Assembly: GCA_011391695.1 (NCBI GenBank)
Contig: JAABQB010000008.1
Coordinates: 2,719 to 66,718, forward strand
Length of the DNA: 64,000 nt
Direction of reading: 5' to 3'
Origin: Desulfobacteraceae bacterium
GTDB taxonomy: Bacteria; Desulfobacterota; Desulfobacteria; Desulfobacterales; RPRI01
Each line of letters begins with the position of its first letter. Position 1 is the first letter of the stretch. Position numbers and translations under genes: made by a program. The notes beneath the pieces were generated by a model. It was not told the origin of the DNA, did no database searches, and saw only the letters and a program-made list of their open reading frames with translations. Below, piece by piece: positions 11,989-16,008 of this stretch.

Positions 11989-12576
11989 TTACAAAACCCC
12001 TTTTGTTGATTGGATTCCTTTTATACGCTCATCAATTGAAGTTGCCTGATCAAGAGCCCTTCCCGCAGCTTTGAAAACAGATTCGATTATATGGTGTTCA
12101 TTCTGACCGTAGAATACGTTGATGTGCAGATTCATGCCTCCCTGGGTTGAAAAAGCCCTGAAAAATTCCCTTCCGAGACCTATATTAAAATTCCCTCCCT
12201 GAAATGGAGTTGGATTCACATTGTAAACCATATAAGGGCGGTTAGACAGATCAATGGTAACAGAAGCCATGGCATCGTCCATCGGAAGAACAGCATGTCC
12301 GTAGCGCCTGATGCCTTTTCTGTCGCCAAGCGCTTTTTTAAATGCATCCCCCAGCACAAGGCCCACATCTTCAATTGTATGATGCAAGTCGACCTCAAGA
12401 TCACCCCTTGCGGTTATAAAAAGATCAAAAAAACCATGCACCGAAAAGAGAGAAAGCATGTGATCAAAAAAGGGGACCCCGGTATCTATTTCGTGTTTGC
12501 CTGTTCCGTCCAGACAAAGCTTCATGGTTATAGCTGTTTCTTTAGTCTTTCGGTCAACATCAGCTGTACGGTTCAT
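11989..12576 (-). CDS. hisB: Imidazoleglycerol-phosphate dehydratase
   Basis: RKTKET, FFDHML, HHTIEDVG, NEHHIIES and STKG motifs. Confidence 0.97.
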   Translation of the reverse strand: MNRTADVDRKTKETAITMKLCLDGTGKHEIDTGVPFFDHMLSLFSVHGFFDLFITARGDLEVDLHHTIEDVGLVLGDAFKKALGDRKGIRRYGHAVLPMDDAMASVTIDLSNRPYMVYNVNPTPFQGGNFNIGLGREFFRAFSTQGGMNLHINVFYGQNEHHIIESVFKAAGRALDQATSIDERIKGIQSTKGVL

Positions 12577-12606
12577 AAGCAACCTATAATTATATTATGA
12601 AATGTC

Positions 12607-12682
12607 TGGTGGAGATGAGGGGGTTCGAACCCCTGGCCTCGGCGTTGCGAACGCCGCGCTCTCCCAACTGAGCTACATCCCC
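12607..12682 (-). tRNA. tRNA-Ala (CGC)
   Basis: GGGGATGTAGCTCAGTTGGGAGAGC; anticodon arm CGGCG-TTCGCAA-CGCCG; ends TCCACCA. Confidence 0.95.
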
Positions 12683-12696
12683 ACATTTTTTACTGT

Positions 12697-12725
12697 TTAT
12701 TACCAAATCGGAAAGAAACGGTCAA
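12697..12725 (-). promoter_or_regulatory. Putative sigma70 promoter for tRNA-Ala
   Basis: TTGACC-17-TAATAA on the minus strand. Confidence 0.55.
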
Positions 12726-12818
12726 TTTAAAAAAATTTATTTTTAAGGCAAAAGATGATAAATTAACTTGATTGTATATAAAAAGCAGTTAAATTTAAAA
12801 CCACGGGGGAACCTATAA

Positions 12819-14549
12819 ATGGGCTACAAGGTTATTCTTTCCGATGCTTTCAAGCGTTTTACACTGGATCAGGACAAGATAAAAACACCTGGTGAAACTG
12901 TTGAATATTTCAAAAATAAATTGAAAACGCTTGATCTTGACATTCTTGAAAGCACTGCAAGAATAGACAATGGCAGGCTTGGCATACCAGTATATTTCAG
13001 CAGATGCGGGAAAGACGCATCATCCATAACCGGAACAAAAAAACAGATGGGGAAAGGAGCCACACCAGCTCAGGCAGAAGCAAGCGCAGTTATGGAGCTT
13101 GCAGAAAGATTCAGCTTTTTCTCTTTTTGCAGGAATCCAGGCAATTTTTTCCATGAAAAATATATAAATATAAAGGAAAACGCAATATCCTTTGAAATGA
13201 TCGCAAGTTCGGTCCATGATTCTTCCGGAGATATAGAAAAAGCACGAAAGATATTCGAGAACATGACATTGAAATGGACATGGGCTTATAATCTTACAAG
13301 AAAGCAGGAAGTCCTTATCCCTTTCAACTGGTTTTATATGATCAACGAATTCAATGGCCCATCAGCAGGAAACTGCGTCGAAGAAGCATTAAGCCAGGGA
13401 ATATGCGAAATTATTGAAAGACACGTCTCGTCATTGATTAGCAGAAACAACCTTGATGTTCCGGGAATTGACCCTGATTCGGCCACCGACCCGATGGTTG
13501 TCGAAATGATAAATAAATATAGAGTTGCCGGAATAAGTTTACATATCTCGGACTTCTCCCTTGAAACAGGCCTGCCTACAGTAGGTGTGCTCGCTTATGA
13601 TCCGTCAACTTTTCCTGAAAAGAGTGAAATAGTATGGACAGCAGGAACAACGCCGGACCCGCAAAAGGCACTCAGCCGTGCGCTTACCGAAACGGCCCAG
13701 CTTGCCGGCGACTTCAATTCATATTCAAATTATGTTGCAAGCGGCCTTCCTAAGTATAAAAGAATCGAAGATGCTTCATATATAATAAATCCAAAGACAA
13801 CAAAAAGCATTCAGAGCCTGCCTGATCTTTCCGACAGCAATATAAAAGTGGAGGTTGAAAACCTCATATCTGTTCTTGCAAAGAACGGGATGGAAATAAT
13901 AGTTGTAAACACGACACATCCCGAGCTTCAAATACCGGCATTTTATACTGTTGTTCCAGGAGCTCATTTCAGGGAAAGAGCAATCGGGACAAGCGTTGGC
14001 TTGTTCTGTGCCAAGATAACTGTTGAAAACTTTAAACCTGAAGATGCAATCAATGAATTAACAAAGATCGGAGAAGCACTTCCCGGAAAGTATTATATAC
14101 ATTTTTATATCGGCCAGACTCATCTTTCACTAAATGATCCGGACTCTGCGCTTTCCAGCTTCAGACAGGCGATCGAACTGGATCCTCCCTTACAGGACAT
14201 TCCAAGCATATATTCATATATGGGTATATGCCTGAAAAATATGGGAAATTATAAAGAAGCCATCGATGTTCTGAAAAAAGGCGAGTATTACGATAACGAA
14301 CGCACGGATATTTATAATCTCATGGGGTTTTGCCACTTTATGCTCAAAGAACATGAAATGGCGATAGAGAATTTCAAGAAGGTTATTAAAATCGACCCCG
14401 GTTCGGCAATTGACTACGCAAACATTGCATCGAATTACCGTGATATGGGAGAAAATGAAAAAGCTATTTATTACTATAAGGTAGCGCTTGAGCTTGACCA
14501 TTCAATTGAGTTTGCCAAAGTATCTCTTGCCAGGCTGCTTCAGGTCTGA
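12819..14549 (+). CDS. YcaO-family ATP-dependent enzyme with C-terminal TPR repeats
   Basis: MGKG..QAEASAVMELAER, NGPSAGN..EEA...ICEIIERH and RALTE ATP-binding motifs. About four TPRs in the last ~150 aa. Confidence 0.88.
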   Translation: MGYKVILSDAFKRFTLDQDKIKTPGETVEYFKNKLKTLDLDILESTARIDNGRLGIPVYFSRCGKDASSITGTKKQMGKGATPAQAEASAVMELAERFSFFSFCRNPGNFFHEKYINIKENAISFEMIASSVHDSSGDIEKARKIFENMTLKWTWAYNLTRKQEVLIPFNWFYMINEFNGPSAGNCVEEALSQGICEIIERHVSSLISRNNLDVPGIDPDSATDPMVVEMINKYRVAGISLHISDFSLETGLPTVGVLAYDPSTFPEKSEIVWTAGTTPDPQKALSRALTETAQLAGDFNSYSNYVASGLPKYKRIEDASYIINPKTTKSIQSLPDLSDSNIKVEVENLISVLAKNGMEIIVVNTTHPELQIPAFYTVVPGAHFRERAIGTSVGLFCAKITVENFKPEDAINELTKIGEALPGKYYIHFYIGQTHLSLNDPDSALSSFRQAIELDPPLQDIPSIYSYMGICLKNMGNYKEAIDVLKKGEYYDNERTDIYNLMGFCHFMLKEHEMAIENFKKVIKIDPGSAIDYANIASNYRDMGENEKAIYYYKVALELDHSIEFAKVSLARLLQV

Positions 14550-14835
14550 TTTGCCTGAACAAACTCTGATAATCATCCATTCCCTTTCTAACGTCCATCA
14601 TCCGAAGACTCTTGACAGTATAATACAATAATCAATGCGCAAAAATAGGCCCTTTGGAACCAAATATTAAAAAATATGGCAATATCTTGTAAATTATAAG
14701 ATTTTATGATATTAAGTATTCCAGTATGGAACCTGAACAGGAAAGCATGGCATTAGTAATTATCTCGGTTTAAGATAACATTTATCAATTTCGTTTCATT
14801 TATTGAAATTCATATTTTTAGAAGGAAAACAGGCT

Positions 14836-14982
14836 ATGTCAAAAAAACATCCTGAATGCCCGCTATATAATCCATTAAATTGCAAGGAATATTACAATCC
14901 AAAGCTTTGCGCTTTTGTAAGAAAAGACAAGATATGTCTTAAAAAGAAGAAGCCAAAAACAAAAGCAAAAGATAAGGAATGA
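14836..14982 (+). CDS. Unannotated 48-aa Cys4/Lys-rich microprotein
   Basis: AGAAGGA RBS upstream; MSKKHPECPLYNPLNCKEYYNPKLCAFVRKDKICLKKKKPKTKAKDKE. Below the ORF-track length cutoff. Confidence 0.7.
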   Translation: MSKKHPECPLYNPLNCKEYYNPKLCAFVRKDKICLKKKKPKTKAKDKE

Positions 14983-15048
14983 TATAAAAAGAAACTGGCA
15001 AAGGGGAGTATGTTAATTATTAATAAATTTTGACTTTAACAAAAAAAA

Positions 15049-15618
15049 TCACGCGTGCCCCGCTGTTGCGGAAAGAAGCGCCGGGTCTATTCCCATTTTT
15101 TTCACAGTCTCTTCCCACCGGATTTCAGCCGGTAATTTAAAAATAATATCCTCTGATACCGAACAGGTAAGCCATGAATTATCCTTTATCTCTGATTCAA
15201 GCTGGCCCGGCCCCCACCCTGCACATCCAAGCGCAATAATATAAGACATGGGCCCATTTCCTCCCGCAATAGCCTGGAGTATGTCCATTGTGTTGCTCAT
15301 GGCAAGATTCCGGGTAATCATAAAACAACCTCTCCATGTAAACGGCGCCGAATGGAGTATGAATATTTCACCTGTATGAACAGGCCCGCCGATGTATACT
15401 GGTATTGAATCAGCCCCAGGGATATGCTCGATATTAAGTTCATCAAAAATATCTTTTCCGGTAAGAGAGGAAGTCATCCTGTTTATGACTATTCCAAGCG
15501 CACCTTCTGAATTGTGTTCAGAAATACAGGTTACTGTCCGGTAAAAATTAGGATCAGCAAGAGCAGGCATGGCTAAAAGAAAATTTCCTTTAAGTGTGAC
15601 CTGCAGGTTGTCTTCCAT
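15049..15618 (-). CDS. YqgE/AlgH family protein
   Basis: LLAMP..DPNF, GALGIVIN, GGPV, LGCAGWGPGQLE.EI..NSW. Confidence 0.93.
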   Translation of the reverse strand: MEDNLQVTLKGNFLLAMPALADPNFYRTVTCISEHNSEGALGIVINRMTSSLTGKDIFDELNIEHIPGADSIPVYIGGPVHTGEIFILHSAPFTWRGCFMITRNLAMSNTMDILQAIAGGNGPMSYIIALGCAGWGPGQLESEIKDNSWLTCSVSEDIIFKLPAEIRWEETVKKMGIDPALLSATAGHA

Positions 15619-15648
15619 ATCAACTCCGGTAATGTTTCATTATATTTC

Positions 15649-15930
15649 TTAAGAATTATGCACTTTATTGAGTTTTTTTAGCTGTTCAATCCTGTTATTA
15701 CACAATGCAAGATCAAACCACTTGCAAAATAAAGGAACAAGACTTTTTTGAAGTTCCTTCTCACTCGCCGACTTCATTTTCTCAAGTTCTAAAAGGGCAT
15801 CCGAAACATCGTGTCTGTCCGGATCCTGTTTCAACAAATTATTATATATCCCGACCGCATTGTCATACAATCCCTGCCTTGCATATATTTTCGCCATAGT
15901 CACTGTATTTAAATCACTTGCCTCAACCAT
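15649..15930 (-). CDS. Small TPR-like hypothetical protein
   Basis: TVTMAKIYARQGLYDNAVGIY TPR-like helix pair; RBS present; co-oriented with neighbours. Confidence 0.65.
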   Translation of the reverse strand: MVEASDLNTVTMAKIYARQGLYDNAVGIYNNLLKQDPDRHDVSDALLELEKMKSASEKELQKSLVPLFCKWFDLALCNNRIEQLKKLNKVHNS

Positions 15931-16008
15931 TCCTGCATTCCCCCAAGTTGCCGTTTAGTTTCCATCCGGAAATGTCATAGTCCCTTAAATTTATTTTCTG
16001 GATCGATA

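Follow-up and report, generated by a model that had tools for sequence, protein, structure and literature searches.

A conserved four-cysteine, lysine-tailed microprotein gene of Desulfobacterales lies beside YcaO-TPR but appears to be independent of it

The locus and the microprotein ORF

The window, that is, the whole 64,000-nucleotide stretch of Desulfobacteraceae DNA that was analyzed, carries a short ORF between a YcaO-TPR gene and a gene for AlgH/YqgE. The features at this locus are as follows.

12819..14549, + strand: YcaO-TPR gene of the DVU2210 type (Pfam YcaO, 1.7e-75, plus TPR repeats), a separate gene
14687..14715, + strand: predicted sigma-70-type promoter of the microprotein gene's own, the sole conserved block in the upstream alignments (-35 TTGTAA at 14687-14692; 17-nt spacer; extended -10 TG at 14707-14708; -10 TATTAA at 14710-14715)
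14716..14835, + strand: 5' leader, with neither length nor sequence conserved across the order
14823..14826, + strand: Shine-Dalgarno AGGA within GAAGGAAAA, 9 nt 5' of the ATG
14836..14982, + strand: microprotein CDS of 48 aa; in the translation, residues 1-35 form a Cys4 core and residues 36-48 a Lys-rich tail
15049..15618, - strand: AlgH/YqgE (DUF179), convergent and downstream (Pfam DUF179, 2.8e-47)

An earlier note on this DNA had described a four-cysteine, lysine-rich ORF of 48 codons, and every sequence feature that it named is present in the translation. The cysteines stand at residues 8, 16, 25 and 34, which gives the spacing C-x7-C-x8-C-x8-C, and the (Y)NP..C pattern said to be repeated occurs twice, as YNPLNC (residues 11-16) and YNPKLC (residues 20-25). 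The whole protein has 14 lysines and one arginine against five acidic residues (pI 9.7, net charge +10). The part beyond Cys34 is strongly basic, as the note had it, while the core, with its four thiolates and four aromatic residues, carries a net charge of +4. The mass is about 5.6-5.7 kDa, and neither a signal peptide nor a hydrophobic segment was found in the sequence. The ORF is co-oriented with YcaO-TPR, and 286 nt separate the YcaO-TPR stop (14549) from its ATG, again as had been claimed.

Shuffling of the 499-nt gap, which has 30% GC, produced an ATG ORF of 48 aa or more in 20% of cases. The length of the ORF is thus not significant by itself, and the proof of a gene lies in its conservation. 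The exact protein sequence is absent from a collection of 15 billion proteins, which fits an ORF that was not called in the source genome. Close relatives, such as that of Desulfobacterium sp. N47, stand in the databases as "hypothetical protein"; a protein this short is easily missed by annotation pipelines or left with that label.

Conservation of the microprotein

On comparative grounds, the ORF is a real protein-coding gene. A word-indexed search returned 374 homologous clusters at 90% identity, most of them 88-100% identical to the microprotein over its first 29-48 residues, and an exhaustive HMM search returned 180 representatives at the 50% identity level. Close relatives agree without exception at about 30 of the first 40 positions. 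In 150 diverse representatives, each cysteine is retained in 142-150 sequences, the exceptions being mostly fragments. Residues 1-39 are near-invariant from Met1 onward, and variability is limited to the C-terminal tail, which in the homologs consists of KP, KA and KPK repeats of variable length (KPKPKPK, KAKAKA, KKKKPK). The family falls into two subfamilies by residue 13, which is Pro in 80 of the 150 representatives and His in 63. Two long proteins that share 90% clusters with the microprotein were considered as fusions and rejected, their sequences being unrelated to it.

The nucleotide changes have the pattern of a translated sequence. Across 35 distinct nucleotide versions, the entropy at codon positions 1, 2 and 3 was 0.35, 0.24 and 1.09, respectively, and pairwise codon differences comprised 8854 synonymous versus 3501 non-synonymous changes. 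For the invariant Cys and Pro residues, all the available codons are in use. These comparisons show strong purifying selection at the protein level, and the third-position wobble rules out a non-coding RNA as the cause of the conservation. The same ATG start is used in all 40 loci examined, and in nearly all of them a purine-rich tract (GAAGGAAA or AGGGGAA) stands as far before the start codon as the Shine-Dalgarno sequence of the window does. In a scan of one genome per species, homologs occur in 420 species.

In the same genome pairs, the microprotein core is more conserved than the neighboring housekeeping enzymes. Between the window and the related genome G038, the microprotein is 89% identical, as compared with 72% for YcaO, 71% for HisB, 72% for HisA and 62% for AlgH; between the window and G033, the microprotein is 97% identical and the neighboring genes are 63-70% identical.

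Distribution

The family is almost confined to Desulfobacterales and is, by its known occurrences, lineage-restricted. Among the 80 loci listed, all labels are of the Desulfobacterales type or unresolved, bar one MAG labelled Hyphomicrobiales, and the genera include Desulfonema, Desulfosarcina, Desulfococcus, Desulfatibacillum, Desulfatitalea, Desulfatirhabdium and Ca. Desulfaltia. In an even sample of the phylum, 13 of 301 genomes have the microprotein. All but one of the 17 genomes in the window's genus keep it, and searches failed to find it in 6 of the 24 other families of the order, some of whose genomes are 97-98% complete. In four genomes without the microprotein (G021, G022, G034 and G035), no divergent copy was found at the syntenic site. 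As it was not found in at least six families of the order, the microprotein must be dispensable. Searches of phages, plasmids and IMG/VR returned no homologs.

A promoter of its own

By the upstream alignments, the microprotein gene is served by a conserved promoter of its own, of the extended -10 type. The motif TTG[TA][AC]A-N13-15-TGnTA was present in 63 of 99 distinct upstream regions, compared with 1% of shuffles, and it was found whichever gene lies upstream: YcaO-TPR, the dynamin-like gene described below, or pdxJ. Transcription is predicted to start near 14722, which would give a leader of ~114 nt in the window. Leaders in the family range from 26 to 220 nt and share no fold. The idea of a riboswitch or leader RNA was dropped because the leaders are unconserved and have no Rfam match; the Rfam scan of 12000-16000 gave only a tRNA gene at 12610-12682 (- strand, 69 bits), between hisB and YcaO-TPR, and a sub-threshold permuted-tmRNA-like match at 12341-12634 that overlaps this tRNA gene and is probably spurious. 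Between the microprotein gene and algH lie 66 nt, in which no intrinsic terminator was recognized. A genome-wide scan of the window's own genome for the promoter motif returned six sites only, upstream of unrelated genes, and gave no sign of a regulon sharing it.

Gene neighborhood

In the window, the surroundings are all housekeeping genes (rpoD, dnaG, hisA, hisB, algH, ftsB, murJ, lptE and leuS by Pfam, 4.7-23.3 kb). Across the family, the commonest order is a divergent dynamin-like gene, the microprotein gene and a convergent AlgH/YqgE gene, with YcaO-TPR lying 2.4-3.5 kb further upstream. In ten other families, the immediate neighbors are a divergent dynamin-like gene of ~750 aa upstream and the convergent AlgH/YqgE gene downstream; where YcaO-TPR is linked in those families, it is separated from the microprotein gene by the dynamin-like gene, often together with a ParA-like gene, and these intervening genes are on the opposite strand. 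AlgH is the most constant neighbor: of 78 species loci, 60 have it convergent at a distance of 450 nt or less. The other recurrent neighbors are the genes for the dynamin-like and ParA-like proteins, glycerate kinase and CopA. The CopA-type gene, encoding a heavy-metal P-type ATPase with HMA domains, was seen just beyond the dynamin-like gene in four families (L025, L026, L033, L035), 2.7-6 kb upstream of the microprotein gene; this proximity may be fortuitous, or it may point to some connection with metal handling. Distant homologs sit in unrelated contexts. The microprotein has no constant partner gene, which points to a self-contained function.

Linkage was counted in those named species loci whose upstream sequence reaches 3.9 kb or more, 59 in all. 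In 42 of them, the adjacent divergent neighbor was the dynamin-like gene. YcaO-TPR was directly adjacent to the microprotein gene in nine loci; in another 24 it lay less than 4 kb away, on the far side of the dynamin-like gene, and in 26 it was absent from the nearest 4 kb. The enzyme gene is within 4 kb in 33 of the 59 loci, but adjacency, as seen in the window, is the exception. We attribute the proximity in these 33 loci to vertical synteny, as more probable than a functional reason.

Only some members of the window's genus, and a few lineages besides, have the two genes directly adjacent. Among 41 related genomes, the microprotein gene lies directly 3' of YcaO-TPR in G038 and, within the window's genus, in 11 of 17 genomes (the window's included); in four genomes of the genus it adjoins pdxJ on another contig. 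Searches for the dynamin-like gene succeeded in 21 of the 24 other families of the order but came up empty in G038 and throughout the window's genus (17 genomes); these genomes usually lack the ParA-like gene as well (window 14550-14835; loci L021-L120). We infer that the adjacency arose by loss of intervening genes from an inherited block with the order hisA, lipoprotein gene, hisB, YcaO-TPR, ParA-like, dynamin-like, microprotein, algH. With the dynamin-like gene and usually the ParA-like gene missing, YcaO-TPR and the microprotein gene have been brought together in the window's genus.

An unlikely role as a substrate of YcaO-TPR

A Cys-rich microprotein beside YcaO-TPR looks like an obvious substrate candidate, and one of the two alternatives offered by the earlier note was that the adjacent enzyme modifies it, turning Cys to thiazoline or forming a backbone thioamide. 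Some observations favor this. In this genome, the two genes share a strand and lie within 286 nt of each other; across the family, YcaO-TPR is often upstream at the distances counted above, and the microprotein is rich in cysteine. YcaO enzymes modify full-length proteins, for example McrA and uL16 (PMC13063428), and DVU2210-type YcaO-TPR has no known native target (PMC7774982). Comparative genomics nevertheless argues against a substrate role, and we consider it very unlikely.

The two genes do not track each other. Across 25 families of the order, represented by one genome each, 16 had both genes, three only the microprotein, five only YcaO-TPR and one neither (Fisher p = 1), counts that match the expectation under independence. 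The microprotein occurs without YcaO-TPR in nearly complete genomes (G029, 98% complete in 10 contigs; G032, 97%; G018, 96%; G070, 97%) and in one that is closed and 100% complete (G141). Its identity to the window's copy is 82% in G029 and 91% in G032, so the constraint on the intact microprotein is independent of the enzyme. In the sample of 301 phylum genomes, a full-length YcaO-TPR is found in 105 and is thus ~8 times more widespread than the microprotein, which is missing from ~94 of these 105. Retained without the enzyme and rarer in the phylum, the microprotein is not a general substrate of DVU2210-type enzymes. The commonest arrangement separates the two genes by opposite-strand dynamin-like and ParA-like genes, and the microprotein gene has a conserved promoter of its own, though in this genome transcription may also read through from YcaO-TPR. 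Nor does the protein have the layout of a leader with a variable core: conservation begins at Met1 and the tail is the variable part. Within 4.7-23.3 kb of the window, Pfam found no genes for E1-like/Ocin-ThiF proteins, TfuA or dehydrogenases nearby. Compared with the known YcaO substrates (RiPP precursors, McrA and uL16), the microprotein is alike in being Cys-rich and, in this genome, beside a YcaO-TPR gene, but it differs in co-occurrence, operon structure, leader/core layout and partner enzymes, all of which are missing. Finally, the TPR-bearing YcaO of E. coli thioamidates the ribosomal protein uL16, to which it is unlinked (PMC13063428), so linkage is not to be expected of a YcaO protein substrate in the first place. 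On these comparisons, the microprotein gene is independent of YcaO-TPR, and the search for the target of DVU2210-type enzymes is pointed toward unlinked proteins, as with E. coli YcaO and uL16, which saves effort.

Comparison with known families

The microprotein had no match in Pfam at E <= 0.01 and none in NCBIfam at E <= 1, and the best match of a profile search against the PDB had E = 1.3. AlphaFold2 reached a pLDDT of 61 with 50 sequences and of 60 with 150, predicting almost no secondary structure, and a Foldseek search of the PDB with this low-confidence model returned nothing. The absence of a confident predicted fold is what a metal-templated mini-domain might give. No relevant description of the family was found in the literature. 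The analysis defines an unnamed protein family, found in ~420 species genomes, with an unusual cysteine spacing and a conserved, strong-looking promoter.

The spacing sets the family apart: CxxC is absent from all 150 representatives, and the cysteines are spaced 7/8/8. The microprotein resembles desulforedoxin and rubredoxin in its small size (36-54 residues), four cysteines, little regular secondary structure and occurrence in anaerobic sulfate reducers. Desulforedoxin has 36 aa, and very small Cys4 iron proteins have precedent in sulfate reducers. Those proteins, however, hold their metal in CxxC or CC knuckles, are acidic or neutral and lack a basic tail, whereas the cysteines of the microprotein are 7-8 apart; none of the desulforedoxin, rubredoxin and zinc-ribbon profiles matched it, and its spacing fits no known signature of zinc ribbons, rubredoxins or ferredoxins. 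The zinc-finger microproteins (archaeal, CPxCG-type) and the ribosomal proteins bL36, bL31 and bL32 are likewise below 70 aa, basic and provided with four potential metal ligands, and they bind nucleic acid or the ribosome. The microprotein differs from them in having no CxxC or CPxCG pairs and no Pfam or PDB similarity. A core ribosomal protein was considered and rejected, given that no copy was found in six of 24 families or at the four syntenic sites noted above. Near the dynamin-like gene of G022, a 57-aa CPxC...CxxC protein resembling Trm112/YcaR is encoded (L129:1582, - strand); it is unrelated to the microprotein family.

In composition, the Lys/Pro/Ala tail is like the histone-H1-type tails of the mycobacterial HupB C-terminus, Pseudomonas AlgP and chlamydial Hc1/Hc2, a likeness of composition and not of homology. 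H1-like bacterial Lys/Pro/Ala tails bind DNA. The tail of the microprotein differs from them in being only 10-30 residues long and in being attached to a Cys4 domain rather than to HU or a known DNA-binding fold.

Proposed function

The reading that we favor, by a little over even chances, is a stand-alone cytoplasmic Cys4 metal-binding module whose polycationic tail probably binds nucleic acid and which acts independently of YcaO-TPR. The alternative of the earlier note that named an independent metal- or Fe-S-binding, nucleic-acid-binding microprotein is plausible in this light, since it fits four cysteines retained at 95% or more, four aromatic residues and Lys/Pro/Ala tails. Metal binding, nucleic-acid binding and the cytoplasmic location are inferred. 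The gene would be translated and independently transcribed. Residues 1-35 would most likely wrap a single metal center, with the four near-invariant cysteines as ligands to Zn, Fe or a small Fe-S cluster and the four aromatic residues as a shield around it, and the Lys/Pro/Ala-rich tail would most likely tether the module to a polyanion, be it DNA, RNA or the ribosome. YcaO-TPR would neither make nor modify the microprotein, and their adjacency would reflect inherited gene order. More tentatively, and with a good deal less confidence, the core may be an undescribed minimal metal or Fe-S fold (thiolates spaced 7/8/8, no CxxC) which, joined to an H1-like tail, forms a redox- or metal-responsive nucleoid- or ribosome-associated protein specific to Desulfobacterales; less likely still, it would be an unlinked protein substrate of the orphan DVU2210-type YcaO-TPR in this order. 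At 5.7 kDa, the microprotein is within reach of peptide synthesis and is tractable for small-protein biochemistry.

Other roles were weighed against a nucleic-acid-bound metal module. The cysteines could instead serve redox or sulfur chemistry, either as a minimal Fe(Cys)4 or Fe-S carrier like desulforedoxin or as a thiol/persulfide relay, with the tail docking to a partner complex or membrane. A strictly anaerobic, sulfate-reducing taxon, four conserved cysteines amid Tyr and Phe, the precedent of desulforedoxin and a CopA-type P-type ATPase a few kb away in four families all speak for such a role. Yet no respiratory or sulfur-metabolism partner gene is consistently nearby, most of the phylum's sulfate-reducing lineages gave no match to the microprotein, and distant homologs occur in a mobile-element-like run and beside a cold-shock gene; together with the unmatched desulforedoxin and rubredoxin profiles, this makes a redox or sulfur role improbable. 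Its immediate divergent neighbor in 42 of 59 species loci, with which it has a common control region of 160-600 nt, suggests a different one, in which the microprotein would work with the dynamin-like protein or regulate it while its poly-Lys tail binds acidic membrane. Here, the genomes speak to the contrary: no dynamin-like gene was found in the window's genus (17 genomes, 16 of them with the microprotein) or in G038, yet the core is unchanged there, and the dynamin-like gene is present in G021, G022, G028, G034 and G035, which all lack the microprotein, the syntenic sites of four of them (all but G028) being without a divergent copy. On comparative evidence, the microprotein gene is thus independent of the dynamin-like gene too, and we give a partnership little credence, no more than a role as YcaO-TPR substrate.

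Least probable of all is a ribosomally made peptide like SCIFF, whose maturation would fall to an unlinked enzyme, for instance one of the radical-SAM type. The microprotein shares with SCIFF and ranthipeptide precursors a length of ~45 aa, richness in cysteine and an unusually high conservation over a large clade. To our knowledge, SCIFF genes always lie beside their own radical-SAM maturase, whereas an adjacent conserved maturase was present in none of ~100 microprotein loci and no radical-SAM gene is among the recurrent neighbors. The NCBIfam search gave no match to such precursors, export or protease genes were not found nearby, and the polycationic tail is unlike that of known precursors.

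Additional copies and distant homologs

Some genomes carry two copies of the microprotein gene: G017 (C7:19542-19682 and C8:444-584), G018 (two sites on C48) and G037 (two sites). The second copy in G018 and G037 is a divergent paralog with 55-62% identity; the better copy of G037 belongs to the His13 type and itself reaches no more than 70% identity.

One distant homolog lies directly past a cold-shock-domain gene. Another (L126:295-9330 and L127), of 49 aa and with the same cysteine spacing, lies 10 nt past a DUF932 gene, within a long series of small uncharacterized ORFs that all point the same way, together with genes for NADAR, HU and DNA ligase, a context that looks like a mobile element or a conjugative leading region. 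In L122:1549-2704 (also in L123-L125), the stop of a His13-type homolog overlaps the start of a 184-aa gene with a weak match to FlmR_OhkR_N, and a circularly permuted YpsA (SLOG) gene comes next; among the loci seen, only here does the microprotein gene look operonic.
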